From positions 11,594,001-11,658,000 of the forward strand of contig CM059430.1 of the NCBI GenBank assembly GCA_030390025.1: DNA of 64,000 nucleotides, written 5' to 3'. Shown here piece by piece: positions 4,986 through 62,844 of this stretch (position 1 is its first letter; every line of letters begins with the position of its first letter). The notes below the pieces were generated by a model. It was not told where the DNA came from and searched no databases. It was given only the letters and a program-made list of their open reading frames with translations. A program made the translations under genes and the position numbers. Origin of the DNA: Squalus acanthias (taxonomy: Eukaryota).

Positions 4986-5862
4986 GGCCGGAATTTTGCC
5001 AGCGCTCAGGGGGTGGGTTTGGAGACGGGACATCCAGCAAAATCGCAAAGATTGACAGCGGGTCAGAAATCCGCTGTCAATCCACCTCCAATCAATCTTC
5101 CCAAGTGTCGGGTCCCCGATTTGCACATGGACCCGACACCAAGCGGTGGGAAGAGGATTATAGGCACTTAACTGCTTGCTAACAAGTTGTTAACAGGCAG
5201 TTAAGAGGCTTTTTGCAATTTTGACAGGTCTACTGCGGGCTTCCCGATGTCCGGACACCACACCAGGTAAGTGTGGTGTGCTGTGGGTCTACTGTAATGT
5301 TTCTGCATTGATGACAGCTGCAGAAGTGGTGTGAAGGATCCAATGGTACACTGGTGAGTTTCAGAGGTAAGAAGATGTTGGGAAAATAATTTTTAATGCA
5401 CTTACACTTTTCTGTAGGTGACAACTTTTGGATTGTGTGTGTAGTCCCACCTCATTGGGAGAACCTCGCTCACCAGTGACAGATCGATTCTGTAACCTCA
5501 CCTGCAGCTGCCATCTGTTCTAGCCTAAGGAGGGAGTCACTGGAGAGCCTGGGTCCAAGGGCTCACCTGTGAACAGTGATTGTCAGTGTTTGCAGCACCT
5601 CAATGCTGTCAAACACTGAAAAATCAGCTGTCAAAAAAAATTGTGCGTGGCCCCTTTAAGAAAACCGCCAGATGACGCATCATCCACAGACGTCATCTGA
5701 CACTGGCTTCCTCTTAATAGGCCGGCAAGCCCGCAAGGTGGGCTTAACAAGGCCAATTGGCGCAAAATCGCGTCTGTGCGTCTGATGTCGTTGGGGGCGG
5801 GACTGGAACCCGGAAGGCAGCTGTCCCGCCCCCAAGACGCATCGATAGGAAAAATCGCGGCC
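4986..5862. mobile_element. Harbinger-like non-autonomous element (possibly composite)
   Basis: Termini GGCCGGAATTTT ... AAAATCGCGGCC; CpG-rich ends with CCCTTTAAG and GACGTCA motifs as in the other MITEs; no clean TSD. Confidence 0.5.
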
Positions 5863-18396: not shown

Positions 18397-19285
18397 GGGG
18401 GAAAAATTCAGTTGGTTGCGCCTCCCGTTAGCGCCTTAAGAGGGTGCTAATGGGGCGCAAATCATCTAGCGCCCGGGCGCGGCAATGTTTGTGCCGCTCG
18501 CGAAATTAACTAGACATTTTGCGGCGGCGCTGAACACTACTGCCACGATCTCCTGCGCCGGCAGATCGTGACGTCAGTCGAGTGCGCAACGCCCCGGTAT
18601 CGCCCCGGAGCGGATATTGAGTGGCGCCCCCTGCCTTACCGCCTGCCGCTAGCAACGACAGGTTGAGGGGAGCGTTTTGCAGTCAGGAAGGGACTGGGGG
18701 AGCGCTATTTAAAGGCGACCGCTTCCTGCCTTTTATTGTTGGTGACATTTTTGAACCACGCTTTCTGAGAGAGAGAGAGAGACTTCTGGAGAGATTCAAC
18801 GTTGTGTGAAGGAGTTTTGGGTACTGAGCAGCACTTTGCAGGTTCATTTTGATTTGCCCTTCCTTGTATCGATTTAGAAGAGAGTGTGGGGGCTGCACTC
18901 TGAGCTCTTTCCTTGGTACTCTCCATTGTTCTTTCCAGCAGATTTGATGTACAGGTCTCTCCAGGCCGAGATTCAAGGCTGCAATGAGCCGGATGTGGAT
19001 GGAAAGCAAGATCAACCCTTCCCTTTAAGAACTGGCCCGCGCCATTGTGTGTGTTCCATTGCTGACTGACATCACATGAGCTTCGCCAGCGCTCTGAGGT
19101 AGCGCCTCACTCCTCGGCCTTTGCGCCTTAAGACAGGTGTGAAGCACCTGATTTAGCGCTCCAATCACCTTCAGGGGCGATAAAAGCCAAGTTTGCAGTC
19201 GGTGGCGATAATTAACGCCAGGCGCTAATCTTTGCGCCCGGCCGATAATTGCGCCCCAAATGGGGCGATACTGAATTTCTCCCCC
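18397..19285 (+). mobile_element. PIF/Harbinger-type non-autonomous element, family 1 copy A
   Basis: TIR GGGGGAAAAATTCAGT/ACTGAATTTCTCCCCC; AAA flanks; homologous to 22777-23621 and 42212-43103. Confidence 0.88.
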
Positions 19286-21710: not shown

Positions 21711-21989
21711 TTTACTGTCTAGAATTACATAGGATTTACAGCACAGAAACAGGCCACTCAGCCCAACTTGTCTATGCCAGCATTTATGCTCCAACCGAGC
21801 CTCTTTTGACCCCTCTTCATCTAACCTTATCAGCATATCCATCTAGGCTCGCACGTGGAGATGAATCACTTTGGCCAGGTATTGGAGCCAGCTGGGCCAG
21901 ACCCCAGCCAAACTCAGCACTCTGAGCAGAGGGGGAAGGCCGAAAAGGGGCAGAAATTGGCATCTGCTTTTGATCTATTAAGGAATACT

Positions 21990-22718
21990 GGGCCAGAAAT
22001 TCGGCTTTCCAGCTTCCTGCGGGTGCAAGCATCGCGCGCCTACTTGCCTACCGCGCCTGCAGTTGTGCTTTGGGCCCACGAGGACTTCGGGTCCTGGGCC
22101 TCCTCCAGCTGCCGGCGCGCAGTGCTTGCGTATCCCAGGGGCGCAGTTAGTTCGAAGCATCCCCTGGGATCACGTGGGTCTAGCAGGGCATTTTCATTCA
22201 TAGATTTGACAGGAAGACCTGTCAAATCTATGAATAGAGATCGACCCCAAAACCACACTTAAACTTCAAATAAATTGAAAAAAAAACATCACATTTTTAA
22301 AATAACTATAAGTTAAATAAATTAACTACTTTAAACAAAAATTTAAATTTTTGAAAAAATTAATTATACTTTTTAACGGTGCTAAAAATAAACTTACCTT
22401 TCTTTAAAGTATCTAAAAAAGATAAACCTGTTGAAAAAATGTTTAAATTGTAATTAATTAACCACTTACCTTGTTAAAAACAGGCCTTGCGCCTCCTTTT
22501 TAAAAGTGCAGCTTTTCCATACTTACCTTCCCGGAGAAACCTGAAAAAAAAACGAAGTTCACTGCGCACGTGTTCGACTTCTGAACCCCTCCCTTCAGGG
22601 GAACGGAAGTTCCGGTTTCCCGCGCATGCGCAGTGCATGCAGGAAACCGGCACTTCAGATGGCCTTACGGGTGAGTACACAGCACGTATTCACCCGACAA
22701 CAGCCGAATTTCTGGCCC
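21990..22718. mobile_element. Harbinger-type non-autonomous element, family 2 copy E
   Basis: Perfect 17-bp TIR GGGCCAGAAATTCGGCT; flanks ACT/ATT; homologous to 56433-57176. Confidence 0.88.
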
Positions 22719-22776
22719 ATTGTGTTATTTAAATTTCAGAATTATCCTGAATAGCAGTAATAAACAAAAGAACATA

Positions 22777-23621
22777 GGGGGAAAAATTTGGTTGCTTTGC
22801 GCCTCCCGTTAGCGCCCTAAGATGTTTGCGCCGCTCGCGAAATTGACCAGACATTTTGTGGCAGCGCTAAACACTACCGCCACGATCTCCTGCACCTGCA
22901 GATCATGACGCCAGTCAAGCGTGCAACGCCCCGGTAGCGCCCCGGACTGGATATTGAGTGGCGCCCCCTGCCTTACCGCCTGCCGCTAGCAACGACAGGT
23001 TGAGCGTTTTGCAGTCGGGAAGGGACTGGGGGAGCGCTATTTAAAGGCGACCGCTTCCTGCCTTTTTTTGGCGGCGATATTTTTGCACCACGCATTCTAA
23101 GAGAGAGAGAGAGAGACTTCTGGAGAGATTCAACGCTGTGTGAAGGAGTTTTGGGTACTGATCAGCACTTTGTAGGTTCATTTTGATTTGACCTTCCTTG
23201 CATCGATTTAGAAGAGACTATGGGGGCTGCACTCTGAGCTCTTTCCCTGGGCCTCTCCATTGTTCTTTCCAGCAGAATTGATGTACAGGTCACTCCAGGC
23301 CGAGATTCAAGGCTGCAATGAGCAGGGTGTGGATGGCGAGCAAGATCGACCCTCCCCTTTAAGAACTGGCTGGCGCCAGTGTGTCTGTGTTCCATTGCTG
23401 ACTGACATCACATGAGCTTTGCCAGCGCTCTGAGGTAGCGCCTCGCTCCTCGGCGTTAGCGCCTTAAGAGAGGTATGTAGCGCCTGATTTAGCGCTCCAA
23501 TCACCTCCAGGGGCGATAGAAGCCAAGTTTGCAGACGGAGGCGATAATTAGCGCCAGGCACTAAACGTTGCGCCAGGCCGATAATTGCGCCCCAAACGGG
23601 GCGATACCGAATTTCTCCCCC
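22777..23621 (+). mobile_element. Harbinger-type non-autonomous element, family 1 copy B
   Basis: TIR GGGGGAAAAATT/AATTTCTCCCCC; 3-bp TSD ATA; inserted in a CR1 tail. Confidence 0.9.
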
Positions 23622-36539: not shown

Positions 36540-37312
36540 GGGGGAAAAATTCAGCTGCTTGCGCCTCCCGTTAGCGCCTTAAATGGGCGCTAATGGGGCG
36601 TAAAGCAGCTAACGCCCGGGCGCAGCGCCGCCCACGCCTCCCGAAAAATTTAGTGGGAGGTTAGCGGCGGCGGCAGCCGGTAGCGCCCTGTGGCGCTGCG
36701 CCGCCGGCGATGACGTCATCGCCGTGCGCAGCGCCCCGCTCGCGCCCCGGCCGTGATCTTCAGTCGCGCCCCCTGATTTACCGCCAGACGCTATGTCCGA
36801 CGGGTTCAGGGGGGCGTACGTGCGGCCGGGGCGGCGATATTTAAAGGGGAGGTGGCAGGCGGCCATTTTTGTTGCTGGCCGCCTGCCAGCACCTGCCCCC
36901 GTTGCTGTCCCCGGCCCCCGTGAAGCCCCCCCACCGTGAAGTGCCGGCTGCGCTCCAAGAGCCCGGCACTTCTCTTGAGTGCCGGGCTCTTTTGCCGGCA
37001 CTCCCGATCCCTGGGAGCCCAGCTGGGCCCCGGTTCGCGCTGCGCAAGGCCCCTCCCCTTTAAGAAGGGGAGGAAGGCCTGCAATACCGCGGCGCGACGT
37101 GCCGCAGCGCGTGGCGCTGCGGCACGTAGCGCCAGGATATTCACTCGCAGCGCCCCAAGAGGGATGCGGGGTGCTTCCAGTTGCGCCCCGCTTCCCTCTT
37201 GGGGCGCAACCACTGAAGTTCCGGCGCGGGGCCGCTAATTTTTTCGGGGCGCTAAAAGTCGCGCCCCGGCGAGGTTAGCGCCCCAAATGGGGCGCGACTC
37301 AATTTTTACCCC
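36540..37312 (+). mobile_element. CpG-rich Harbinger-type element D (family 1 ends, different interior)
   Basis: TIR GGGGGAAAAATT/AATTTTTACCCC; exact 3-bp TSD TTG. Confidence 0.9.
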
Positions 37313-42211: not shown

Positions 42212-43103
42212 GGGGTAAAAATTAGGTCGCGCCCCATTGGGGCGCAAATATCGTCTGGACGCAAATATTAGCGCCTGGCGCTAGTTATCGGCACTGACTG
42301 GAAACTTCACTTTTACCGCCCCGGGAGGTGAGTGGAGCGCTAAATCAGGCGCTGCACACCTGTCTTAAGGCGCAAAGGCCAAGGAGTGAGGCGCTAACTC
42401 AGCGCGCTGGCGAAGCTCATGTAATGTCAGTCAGCAATGGAACACACACACAATGGCACGGGCCAGTTCTTAAAGGGGATGGTTAATCTTGCTTTCCATC
42501 CACATCCTGTTCATTGCAGCCTTGAATCTCGGCCTGGAGAGACTTGCACATCAAATGTGCTGGAAAGAACAATGGAGAGTATCAGACAAAGAGCTCAGAG
42601 TGCAGCTCCCACAGTCTCTGCTAAATCGATACAAGGAATGGCAAATCAAAATGAACCTGCAAAGTGCTGCTCAGTACCCAAAACTCCTTCACACAACGTT
42701 GAATCTCTCCAGAAGTCTCTCCCTCTCGCTCTCAGAATGCGTAGTTCAAAAATGCCACCAACAATAAAAGGCAGGAAGAGGCCCCCTTTAAATAGCGCCC
42801 CCCCCAGCCCCACAGCGATTGATAGCGTTCCAGTCTTCTGGTCGTTGGATGCGCCAGGCGGTAAGGCAGGGGGCGCCACTCAATTTCCGCTCCGGGGCGC
42901 CACAAGGGCGTTGCACCATGGAATGATGTCACAATCTGCGCGCGCAGGTGGTCGCAGCGGTAAAGTTTAGCGCCGCCGCACAATCTCTAGTTAAGTTCCC
43001 GAGTGGCGCAAACATCGCTGCGCCCGGGCGTTAGCGGCTTTGCGCCCCATTAGCGCCCTCTTAAGGCGCTAACGGGAGGCGCAACCAACTGAATTTTTAC
43101 CCC
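42212..43103 (-). mobile_element. Harbinger-type non-autonomous element, family 1 copy C
   Basis: TIR GGGGTAAAAATT/AATTTTTACCCC; reverse-oriented homologue of copies A and B; at least AT is duplicated at the flanks. Confidence 0.88.
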
Positions 43104-56432: not shown

Positions 56433-57176
56433 GGCCCAGAAATTAAAGACGGAGCCTTCCTGCGGGGGTAAGGCTTCCCCGCGATATCTCACTGCGCGCC
56501 TGCCTTTTCATTCTGAGCTCGCACGAACTTGATTTTCTAGACAGCAGCTGTGCAGTGCTTCCGTATCCCACAGGCGCAGTTAATTCGTGCGAGCTGTGGG
56601 ATCACGTGATTCAGTTAGAGCCAATGGCAGCACACCATCTTTCATTCATAGTTTTCACAGCAAGTGCTGTGAAAGCTATGAATCTATACCCCCTCAAAAG
56701 AACAGCTAAACCTCAATTAATTTTTTTTTAAAAACCATCACATTAATAAAATAAGTATAGTTAAATAAATTAACCACTTTAAACAAAAAATTAAATTTTT
56801 GAAAAAATGTAAAATCTTTTAAAAAGTTATAAAAATAAACTTACCTTTCTTTAAAGTCTCTAAAAAAGATATACCTGTTGAAAAAAATTCAAAATAATAC
56901 TTAATTAACTACTTACCTTGTTAAAAGAGGGTCTTACGCCTCCTTTCTTTATGTGCAAAATCTTCCATGCTTACCTGCGCATTCAAAGCACTAAGTGCAC
57001 TGCGTGCGCGCAGCCTGTAGCGCGCACGCGGTTCACTTAGGAACCGCCCCCTTTTGAAATCACCAAGTGCCGGTTTTCAGCGCATGCGCAGTGCATGCAG
57101 AAAACCGGCAATTGGAGACAGAATACGCGAGAGTACACAGTGCGTACTCTCGCGTAGAGACACTAATTTTTGGGCC
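56433..57176. mobile_element. Harbinger-type non-autonomous element, family 2 copy F
   Basis: TIR GGCCCAGAAATTA/TAATTTTTGGGCC; exact TSD ATT. Confidence 0.88.
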
Positions 57177-59186: not shown

Positions 59187-60746
59187 TCTTTCTTCTTCTT
59201 CTTAGGCAGTCCCTCGGAACCGAGGATGACTTGCTTCCACACTAAAAATGAGTTCTCAGGTGGCTGATGAGTCCAATGCGGGACCTACAGTCTCTGTCAC
59301 AGATGGGGCAGACGGTGGTTGAAGGGGCGGGTGGGTGGGGTGCTTGGGTTGACGTGCGCTCCTAGCGCTGCTTGCGCTTGGCTTCTGCTTGCTCCCGGGG
59401 AAGAGACTCGAGGTGTTCAGCGCCTTCCCGAATGCTGCTCCTCTACTTTGTGCGGTCTTGGGCCAGGGATTCCCAGGTGTCGGTGGGGATGTTGCACTTT
59501 GTCAAGGAGGCTTTGAGGGTGTCCTTGAAGTGTTTCCTCTGCCCACCTGGGGCTCTCTTGCTGTGCCGGAGCTCCGAGTAGAGTGCTTGTTTTCGGAGTC
59601 TCGTATCGGGCATGCGGACAATGTGGCCCGTCCATCAGAGCTCATCGAGCGTGGTCAAAGCTTCGATGCTGGGGATATTGACCTGAGCGAGAACACTGAT
59701 GTTGGTGCGCCTATCCTGCCAAAGGATTTGCAGGATCTTGCGGAGGCAGCGTTGGTGGTACCTCTCCAGTGCTTTGAGGTGCCTGCTGTACATGGTCCAT
59801 GCCTCTGAAGCATACAGGAGGGCGGGTATCACTACTGCTCTATAGACCATGAGCTTGGTGCCAGGTTTGAGGTCCTGGTCTTCAAACACTCTCTTCCTCA
59901 GGCGACTGAAGGCTGCACTGGCACACTGAAGGCAGTGTTGGACTTCGTCATCAACGTCTGCCCTTGTTGACAGTAGACCCCCGAGGTATGGAAAGTGGTC
60001 CACGTTGTCCAAGGCCTCGTCATGGATTTTGATAATCGGGGAGCAACTGTGTGGCGGGGGCAGGTTGGTAGAGGACCTTTGTCTTACGGATGTTTAGTGT
60101 AAGGCCTATGCTCTCATACACTTTGGTGAAGGTGTTGACGATGGTTTGGAGTTCGACCTCGGAGTGTGCGCAGACGCAAGCGTCTGCATACTGTAATTCG
60201 GTGACAGAGGATGGGACGACCTTGGATCTGGACTGGAGGCGATGGAGGTTGAACAGTTTCCCGTTTATTCTGTAGATTAGCTCCACTCTAGCAGGGAGCT
60301 TACTGAGGGTGAGATGGAGCATTGCAGCAAGGAAGATCGAGAGAGCATTGGTGTGATGACACAGTCTTGCTTGACCTCGGTCCGTATGTGAATTAGGTCT
60401 GTGGTGGATCTGTTGGTCAGGATCATAGCTTGCATTTCATCATGAAGGAGGCAGAGGATGGTGACAAACTTTTGAGGGCAGCCGAATTTGAGGAGGACAC
60501 CCCATAATTCCTCACGGTTGATGGTGTCGAATGCCTTTGTGAGGTCAAAGAAGGCCATGTACAGCGGTTGGTGCTGTTCCCTGCATTTCTCTTGTAATTG
60601 ACGTGCAGTGAAGATCATGTCCATTGTGCCCCTTAGTGGGCGGATTCCGCATTGCAACTCTGGGAGGAGCTCTTCAGCCACTGGGAGAAGGCGATTGAGG
60701 AGGATTCTTGCGATGACTTTCCCTGTGGCAGACAGCAGGGAGACTC
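59187..60746 (-). mobile_element. RTE-clade LINE with disrupted RT
   Basis: ORFs 60277..60681 (MAFFDLTKAFDT), 60020..60322 (ELQYADA) and 59635..60012; (GAA)n tail; same family as 8360-9292. Confidence 0.94.
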
Positions 60747-60769
60747 ACTTGAAGTAGACACACTGTAAG

Positions 60770-60960
60770 GAGGTCGGGACACAGGAGCGAGGTCGGGACC
60801 CAAGAGCGAGGACAGGGCCCAGGAGCGAGGTCGAGGCCCAGGAGCAAGGACAAGGCCCAGGAACGAGGTCAGGACTCAGGAGCGAGGACAAGGCCCAGGG
60901 GTGAGGTCAGGACCCAGGAGCGAGGATGAGGCCCAGGAGCAAGGTCGAGGCCCAGGAGTA
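60770..60960 (+). repeat. 19-bp GC-rich tandem repeat (about 10 units)
   Basis: CAGGAGCGAGGTCGGGACC-like units at 60782, 60801, 60820 and 60839, alternating GGTC and GGAC variants. Confidence 0.9.
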
Positions 60961-61157
60961 GCACAGCGTGGGCCAGCAACAGGGTCGGAAGGACCACACT
61001 GCAGCCGGTGCACAATAATATTACTGGAACGAGCGGTACTTCTCTCGGTGATAAAGGATATACCATTGATCACCCATATAACCAGGGATTCACTGTTCCC
61101 TGTAACCAAATGTTAGTATTGCTCTCTTGCTATAGGCAGAAGCTGATATTACCCTTC

Positions 61158-62520
61158 ACTATAACCAGGGGATAGTATAACACTACTCTATAACCAGGGG
61201 ATAGTATAACACTCACTATAACCAGGGGATAGTATAACACTCACTATAACCAGGGGATAGTATAACACTCATTATAACCAGGGGATAGTATAACACTCAC
61301 TATAACCAGGGGATAGTATAACACTCACTATAACCAGGAGATTGTATAACACTCACTATAACCAGGAGATTGTATATCACTTGTCTATAACCAGGGGATA
61401 GTATAACACTCACTATAACCAGGGGATAGTATAACCCTCACTATAACCAGGGGATAGTATAACACTCACTATAACCAGGAGATTGTATAACACTCATTAT
61501 AACCAGGGGATAGTATAACACTCATTATAACCAGGGGATAGTATAACACTCACTATAACCAGGAGATTGTATAACACTCACTATAACCAGGAGATTGTAT
61601 ATCACTTGTCTATAACCAGGGGATAGTATAACACTCACTATAACCAGGGGATAGTATAACACTCACTATAACCAGGAGATTGTATAACACTCATTATAAC
61701 CAGGGGATAGTATAACACTCACTATAACCAGGGGATAGTATAACACTCACTATAACCAGGAGATTGTATATCACTTGTCTATAACCAGGGGATAGTATAA
61801 CACTCAGTATAACCAGGGGATAGTATAACACTCACTGTAACCAGGGGATAGTATAACACTCACTATAACCAGGGGATAGTATAACACTCACTATAACCAG
61901 GAGATTGTATATCACTTGTCTATAACCAGGGGATAGTATAACCCTCACTATAACCAGGGGATAGTATAACACTCACTATAACCAGGGGATAGTATAACAC
62001 TCACTGTAACCAGGGGATAGTATAACACTCACTATAACCAGGGGATAGTATAACACTCACTGTAACCAGGGGATAGTATAACACTCACTGTAACCAGGGG
62101 ATAGTATAACACTCACTATAACCAGGAGATTGTATATCACTTGTCTATAACCAGGGGATAGTATAACACTCACTATAACCAGGGGATAGTATAACACTCA
62201 CTATAACCAGGGGATAGTATAACACTCACTATAACCAGGGGATAGTATAACACTCACTATAACCAGGAGATTGTATAACACTCACTATAACCAGGAGATT
62301 GTATATCACTTGTCTATAACCAGGGGATAGTATAACACTCAGTATAACCAGGGGATAGTATAACATTCACTATAACCAGGGGATAGTATAACACTCACTA
62401 TAACCAGGGGATAGTATAACACTCAGTATAACCAGGGGATAGTATAACATTCACTATAACCAGGGGATAGTATAACACTCACTATAACCAGGGGATTGTA
62501 TATCACTTGTCTATAAGCAG
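61158..62520. repeat. 28-bp minisatellite (about 48 units)
   Basis: Unit ACTATAACCAGGGGATAGTATAACACTC with recurring variants. Confidence 0.98.
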
Positions 62521-62844
62521 AGGATAATATAGAACTCAGCTATAGTCATTCTATCCCCTGGTAATAGTGCAAATTCTGCTGCAGTACAAGGATAATACCA
62601 GTCTCTGCTATATTCTGAGGAGGTAGTACTGTCTCCACTAAGTGTCCAGGCGATAGTACTGTTCTCTGCTATGTGGACCCGCAGTTTAATATCTCATCTA
62701 ACAATGCCGCACTCCCTCAGCTGTACACCAGCCTAGATTATGCACTCAAGTCCTGATGTGAAGCAAACCCCAAACCTTGTGACCCAAAGTGCTTCGAACT
62801 GAGCCAAGCTGAAATCAACTAAGAAAACTTTTATTATTTTATTT

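Follow-up and report, generated by a model that had tools for sequence, protein, structure and literature searches.

Within a 64,000-nucleotide stretch of contig CM059430.1 of Squalus acanthias (the window), two segments at 21990–22718 and 56433–57176 have inverted repeats at corresponding places even though their sequences differ widely. The locus raises the question of what these segments are, and of what keeps the two arms of each repeat complementary as their bases change. A sequence-only reading had proposed that pairing rather than sequence is maintained, in the service of either a structured RNA or DNA structures used in mobilisation, with neutral correction of quasi-palindromes as the alternative.

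A Harbinger MITE family and its autonomous partners

Both segments are copies of an abundant non-coding PIF/Harbinger MITE, ~745–765 bp long, with the TIR GGSCCARAAATT and the target AWT. The features of the two copies are listed here in window coordinates.

21987–21989, forward strand: left flanking 3-mer of copy 1, ACT, unlike the right flank ATT
21990–22718, forward strand: copy 1, a non-autonomous Harbinger MITE of subfamily F68, diverged by about 2% and carrying private deletions of 15 and 20 bp
21990–22006, forward strand: left TIR of copy 1, a perfect 17-bp partner of 22702–22718
22236–22500, no strand: AT-rich middle of copy 1, well conserved among subfamilies
22702–22718, reverse strand: right TIR of copy 1, read from the sequence
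22719–22721, forward strand: right flanking 3-mer of copy 1, ATT
56433–57176, forward strand: copy 2, a non-autonomous Harbinger MITE of the young subfamily F42 (mean 0.7% from its consensus), with the flanks ATT/ATT

The TIRs of copy 2 are imperfect and 12–13 bp long. The copies are 72% identical to each other across 603 bp, and the consensuses of their subfamilies agree at 549 of 740 positions (74%). No open reading frame of at least 150 amino acids lies over either copy. In the 3.7-Gb genome, copy 1 as a query yielded 4159 candidates and copy 2 yielded 3937, of which 40 each were scored. The pattern extending from the spacer of stem H3 to stem H4 has 14,195 exact matches, a count that includes the ends of autonomous elements, and its reversed control has none. 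All 268 full-length copies, recovered from 320 loci, are 640–800 bp long. Because the elements combine short TIRs, a non-coding interior, uniform length and high copy number with an autonomous partner, copies 1 and 2 are non-autonomous PIF/Harbinger elements; this is an ordinary Harbinger MITE, a known kind of element. Copies of the family often adjoin or sit within a few kilobases of each other (loci L142, L033, L116, L117, L301 and L315, with L116 and L117 being the same pair of copies inside a local duplication). The motif ACTTACC, which resembles a splice donor on the minus strand, occurs in copy 1 at 22392 and 22464 within the AT-rich middle and at 22521 just past it, and in copy 2 at 56839 and 56911; it is kept in most subfamilies, and the last motif aligns with a similar one upstream of the autonomous transposase.

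A genome search for DDE_Tnp_4 returned 63,886 first-look candidates, of which 150 were scored. The autonomous elements are 4.5–4.7 kb long, have the same TIRs as the MITEs, and encode a DDE_Tnp_4 transposase of ~390 residues together with a Myb/SANT protein (Myb_DNA-bind_5 ORF) on the opposite strand. About the first 75–115 bp and the last 110–260 bp are shared between MITEs and autonomous elements; the last 112 bp of copy 2 recur in 23 of the 30 fetched transposase loci at 87–96% identity, and some match is present in 28 of them. Stems H3 and H4 are present in the autonomous elements, upstream of the transposase. On comparison with 10 autonomous elements, H1, H2 and the AT-rich middle found no match; these elements have another palindrome, around TGACGTCA, in a comparable position. 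The ends of MITE subfamilies track autonomous lineages (F53 with L098/L107, F35 with L099, F42 with L093/L097, and F66 with L092/L096), a correspondence of sequences that suggests repeated exchange of ends. The many intact ~390-residue DDE_Tnp_4 reading frames point to a very large and recent Harbinger expansion in this genome. In the available part of an earlier survey, no Harbinger element was found in the elephant shark, and other cartilaginous fish were proposed for examination (PMC9179366).

The family resembles PIF/Harbinger and Tourist-like MITEs (mPing/Pong; zebrafish Harbinger3_DR) in its TIRs starting with GG, in a 3-bp duplication whose central base is W, and in an extended palindromic target preference, here AYAWTRT as the flank consensus of 251 copies. 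It differs from them in that the target is AWT instead of TWA or CWG, and in that local covarying palindromes are present in addition to terminal repeats. A two-gene autonomous partner, with one gene for a DDE transposase and one for a Myb-like protein, is likewise shared with them according to the available parts of two papers (PMC2836001, PMC9179366). No report of this MITE family was found in the literature searched, a scope that leaves out Repbase, Dfam and most subscription journals; a search without most subscription journals also found no covarying internal palindromes in Harbinger MITEs.

Stems that covary across 22 subfamilies

The four stems H1–H4 described from the sequence are real in both copies, and every arm string quoted for them is present. 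The stems have no strand.

22132–22170: H1 of copy 1, 10-bp arms with a 19-nt spacer, MITE-specific sequence
22196–22235: H2 of copy 1, 18 bp perfect with a 4-nt spacer, MITE-specific sequence
22605–22657: H3 of copy 1, perfect core at 22612–22650, common to the transposase-upstream end of the autonomous element
22668–22696: H4 of copy 1, 11 bp with a 7-nt spacer and a single G-T pair caused by the private change C>T at 22689, common to the autonomous end
56451–56478: H0 of copy 2, an imperfect inverted repeat near the left end, with 4–12 of 12 pairs, variable across subfamilies
56565–56602: H1 of copy 2, 9 bp
56644–56683: H2 of copy 2, 18 pairs, one of them T-G
57002–57029: H5 of copy 2, 10 bp with an 8-nt spacer
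57068–57110: H3 of copy 2, 11-bp perfect core
57124–57156: H4 of copy 2, 13 bp perfect with a 7-nt spacer

Besides the G-T pair in H4 of copy 1, a few details needed correction. The arm strings given for H3 in fact lie at 22612–22650 and 57070–57108, the wider ranges being those of the extended stem; and H2 of copy 2 lacks the 19th pair once assigned to it, which would leave a 2-nt loop, and contains one T-G pair. H0, H5 and an outward extension of H4 had been overlooked. H5 is missing from copy 1 through its private 20-bp deletion.

Stem counts within a single copy were compared with those in 300 block-wise dinucleotide shuffles, for perfect arms of at least 8 bp. Copy 1 has three such stems against 2.0 expected, a number reached by 90 of 300 shuffles and not significant, and its 18-bp H2 arm exceeds the longest shuffled arm of 13 bp. 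Copy 2 has six against 1.6 expected (6 of 300 shuffles), with a longest arm of 13 bp and a shuffled maximum of 14 bp. The real support for the stems comes from their positional conservation across 22 subfamilies, not from these counts.

Consensuses were derived from the 215 full-length copies that fall into 22 clusters of at least three, with 53 of the 268 copies lying outside clusters. All 22 subfamilies retain H1–H4, with at least 7 of 10 pairs in H1, 14 of 18 in H2, 16 of 19 in H3 and 9 of 11 in H4, and 90% of the H1–H4 pairs in the 22 consensuses are Watson–Crick. By contrast, H0, H5 and the outward extensions of H4 and of the TIR are gained and lost clade by clade. The 58 pairs of H1–H4 were scored against 2000 variability-matched randomisations: there are seven compensated events on the same branch, compared with 0.4 ± 0.6 expected, and 16 extra pair types, compared with 4.0 ± 1.7; no randomisation reached either value, with the qualification that relatedness and partial mosaicism of the subfamilies leave the covariation events not fully independent. 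Among 18 real copies, the percentage paired, the compensated cells and the covariation score of H3 and H4 beat all 500 column shuffles, and controls with slid stems score lower than the real stems; the pairs changed on both sides (47/500) and the pair types (168/500) did not beat the shuffles. The description of a TIR element family with covarying arms therefore stands, as complementarity has been kept across subfamilies beyond the matched null. That pairing rather than sequence was maintained is an overstatement, since the arms are also conserved in sequence, with 0.71 changes per column compared with 1.41–1.42 in other GC-rich columns of the ends.

A concerted change links several sites. In subfamilies F05 and F07, the motif TTCCGTT has become TTCCGAT at both TIR extensions and in both arms of H3, but not at a fifth homologous site. 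A permutation over all clades ignores the tree, and the contrast of F05/F07 with F17–F27 was used to judge this concordance.

The covariation against a matched null, z values of −5 to −12 when the last 130 bp are folded, and element sequence in the contigs of all four putative RNA runs are what would speak for a structured RNA carried by the element and selected for its pairing. However, the distinct mismatch types in H1–H4 are 10 G-T, 7 A-C and 23 purine–purine or pyrimidine–pyrimidine (p = 0.63), and 12 of the 16 Watson–Crick swaps are transversion pairs. Over all stems there are 28 G-T and 24 A-C mismatch types. The z is equal on both strands, and the small strand difference also arises in shuffles; the greater stability of the minus strand of the last 130 bp, which 20 of 22 consensuses show, is explained by composition. 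The contigs cover the element from TIR to TIR with no discrete ends listed, and contigs cannot show strand or ends. Rfam gives no match at the gathering score within the window. Furthermore, one of the four changed TTCCGAT sites would need two pairing partners, which is impossible in a single fold. A selected RNA structure is accordingly a very improbable cause of the pairing. The proposal of an RNA cargo is unsupported by two of the checks that had been suggested for it, a strand bias of G-U pairs (10 versus 7 in H1–H4, no bias) and an Rfam search, as well as by the predominance of transversion swaps and the shuffles, and the element is unlikely to be a carrier of folded RNA. The family provides a caution, because covariation is strong here without an RNA signature.

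What keeps the arms symmetric

Comparison of the sequences favours the reading that H1–H4 are two-fold symmetric sites in double-stranded DNA, needed for mobilisation as binding sites, to which we give a probability of roughly 0.5. The Myb protein, the transposase or dimeric host factors would bind such sites. A change in one arm would be tolerated for a while, and the other arm would then change to match, by selection and possibly aided by copying from arm to arm during gap repair. The mismatched intermediates that such a course would amplify as whole subfamilies do occur, for example with T-T in H4. Selection on symmetric double-stranded sites fits both the presence of H1–H4 in all subfamilies and the position of deletions common to a whole subfamily, which lie outside H1–H4. 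It also fits the absence of a second copy, among 40 scored, of a 472-bp derivative that lacks half of H2 and the middle. An amplified stem-less subfamily was not found with full-length queries, which bias against finding one.

The Myb protein of Harbinger3_DR reportedly binds short palindromic subterminal sites, and motifs in the ends of the element are candidate E-box, CCAAT, NRF1-like and ETS-like sites. The mobility of mPing depends on internal sequences, according to the available part of PMC10288884; in that of PMC2836001, Harbinger ORF1 is said only to bind TIRs. Two observations stand against binding sites. Autonomous lineages with differing end motifs have an almost unchanged predicted third helix in the Myb domain, so a change of the protein does not explain the changes of the motifs; coevolution of the recognition helix with the end motifs was considered and is not seen. 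In addition, the clade-specific extensions resemble the products of arm copying.

The main rival is a correction of quasi-palindromes confined to source lineages, in which error-prone gap repair after excision switches template between arms and the stems have no function. It would account for the multi-base, clade-specific extensions of H4, H0 and the TIR, which have different sequences, for the four-site concerted change, which follows a chain of inverted pairs, and for the unchanged Myb helix. The arms are also mildly depleted in private mutations, to 0.65–0.78 of the level in columns outside the stems, as measured in the largest five subfamilies (p 0.008–0.03, ignoring the error of the control), which is a weak hint of arm-templated repair. 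By contrast, dormant copies contain no compensated double change: among 196 altered paired cells, taken from 172 copies in nine subfamilies, none is compensated, a count in which, as in the first mismatch counts, the H2 row of F66 was one column out of register; with F66 H2 in register, the same-branch compensations are again seven. Neutral correction in dormant copies is thus not seen, and symmetry is kept only in amplifying (source) lineages. Functionless stems would also not be expected to show the sequence conservation of the arms (0.71 versus 1.41) or to survive in every one of the 22 subfamilies. This neutral account is doubtful, although it is the strongest of the competitors.

Less probable still is extrusion of the stems, as DNA hairpins or cruciforms, within the transpososome or the promoter, with recognition by shape and not by sequence. 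Extrusion agrees with Watson–Crick swaps that proceed by transversion, without wobble intermediates or strand preference, with H2 reaching 18 bp around a 4-nt loop, and with several single-copy deletions in H5, H4 and H2, which were counted without a null comparison. However, most arm positions are invariant, and the spacers of H1 and H3 are 19–21 nt long, a length that is poor for cruciform extrusion. Harbinger is, moreover, a double-strand cut-and-paste system, as stated in the available part of PMC2836001. Intact autonomous partners together with fixed palindromes that swap pairs offer a ready test of selection on DNA symmetry versus sequence.

Unequal flanking duplications

The flanks of copy 1, ACT and ATT, exemplify a second property of the family. 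Of the 268 copies, 17 were set aside, and the 251 whose GG..CC ends are intact were analysed. The left and right 3-mers differ at their first, second and third positions in 33, 95 and 38 copies, respectively. Where both flanks are ANT (170 copies), the 3-mers match in 102, more than the 43.5% given by independence but far fewer than if they were always identical. Mutation after insertion is rejected as the source of mismatch: in F42, at 0.7% divergence, the 3-mers differ in 16 of 32 copies (p = 2e-14 against decay). Within the ANT/ANT copies, AAT...ATT is more frequent than ATT...AAT (35 versus 18, p = 0.027), and the former adds 3 bp to the symmetry of the TIRs.

The 251 junction queries produced paralogous empty sites for 66 copies, 41 of them scorable; these sites are paralogues at 80–97% identity, not orthologues. 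Four runs of other organisms contained no joint across the element that would give an orthologous empty site for copy 1. A 3-bp duplication without a gap fits 265 of the 346 top matches to paralogous empty sites. Among the 41 scored sites, 14 have matched flanks equal to the empty site and 8 have matched flanks unlike it; in the mismatched ones, the left flank equals the target in 7, the right in 7, and neither in 5. In 11 of the 14 mismatches that could be resolved, the side unlike the target reads AAT or ATT; one of these is AAA/ATT where the target is AAA.

These flanks are probably best explained by integration that retains the 3-nt overhang of the donor, making one flank donor-derived and the other target-derived. 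After excision by staggered cuts the element would still bear 3 nt of donor flank as overhangs, and a large fraction of ends would have this overhang ligated into the new AWT site rather than replaced. If the donor overhang were kept half the time at each end, hand arithmetic predicts ~62% matches, compared with 60% seen. The carry-over would be partial, as indicated by 24 copies with identical non-canonical duplications and by F53, which is mostly matched (24 of 31). Mismatches of the middle base occur in 3 of 27 copies of F53, compared with 32 of 67 in F42, F66 and F68 together (p = 0.0008). In a neighbouring TIR family the flanks match in 8 of 12 copies, which shows that true duplications are recovered by this approach.

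Several other origins of the unequal flanks were considered. A model with zero duplication, in which the element is T...A and the target AW^WT, is rejected because the empty sites need a 3-bp duplication. Spy-like elements are a family defined by the lack of target duplication, and the 3-bp duplication at the empty sites rules out an element of that kind. A reverse-complement flip of the 3-mer is disfavoured by 14 S/W pairs where decay predicts 5.7 (p = 0.002), and by the occurrence of just one C/G pair. Ectopic crossover between copies is disfavoured as well, since left and right flanks are contiguous in paralogues.

Related behaviour is known from other transposons. In piggyBac, Li et al. 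in 2013 reportedly described mismatches at non-canonical sites. That element belongs to an unrelated superfamily with an invariant 4-bp TTAA; the degenerate middle base here would make mismatch routine. The excised piggyBac element bears its TTAA donor duplication as an overhang, according to the available part of PMC7351741. As described in the available parts of two papers, mPing is cut in a staggered fashion at its duplications (PMC4561436), and excised mPing brings the donor TTA/TAA to Cas9 breaks (PMC11254759). Thus, in mPing too, a 3-nt donor-derived overhang on the excised element can reach a new site; however, carry-over there takes place at engineered blunt breaks joined by NHEJ, whereas here it would occur at natural sites, as judged from genome copies alone. 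Free transposition of mPing is said to preserve an intact duplication (PMC11254759, available part), whereas here about half of the copies have unlike 3-mers. In yeast, mPing flanked by TCA inserted 45 of 46 times at TTA/TAA (PMC4561436, available part), which argues against routine carry-over in yeast mPing. No report of routine unequal duplications at natural Harbinger insertions was found in a literature search without most subscription journals.

If retention of the overhang is correct, the family provides genomic evidence for Harbinger transposases that integrate with the donor overhang attached, to a degree that differs by lineage, and annotation software that accepts only identical TSDs would overlook half of these copies. 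A combined scheme, which is improbable as a whole, is that this vertebrate Harbinger clade integrates in the style of piggyBac, with flanks that record the donor of each copy, and that its ends are read by DNA shape, the hairpin sequence being free to drift as long as the arms remain complementary.

Palindrome-rich interiors seem to be common to such TIR elements in the window. Another TIR element, GC-rich and with GGGGKAAAAATT ends and TTG/TTG flanks, occupies 36540–37312 and contains 13 of the 48 perfect inverted repeats with arms of at least 9 bp in the window; its relatives lie at 18397–19285, about 22775–23620, and 42212–43103. An older TIR-like element at about 4987–5862 (GGCCGGAATTTT ... 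AAAATCGCGGCC) has eight short inverted repeats, one of which contains TTGACAG/CTGTCAA, as does H2. Tandem arrays of 19-bp and 28-bp units are located at 60729–62544.
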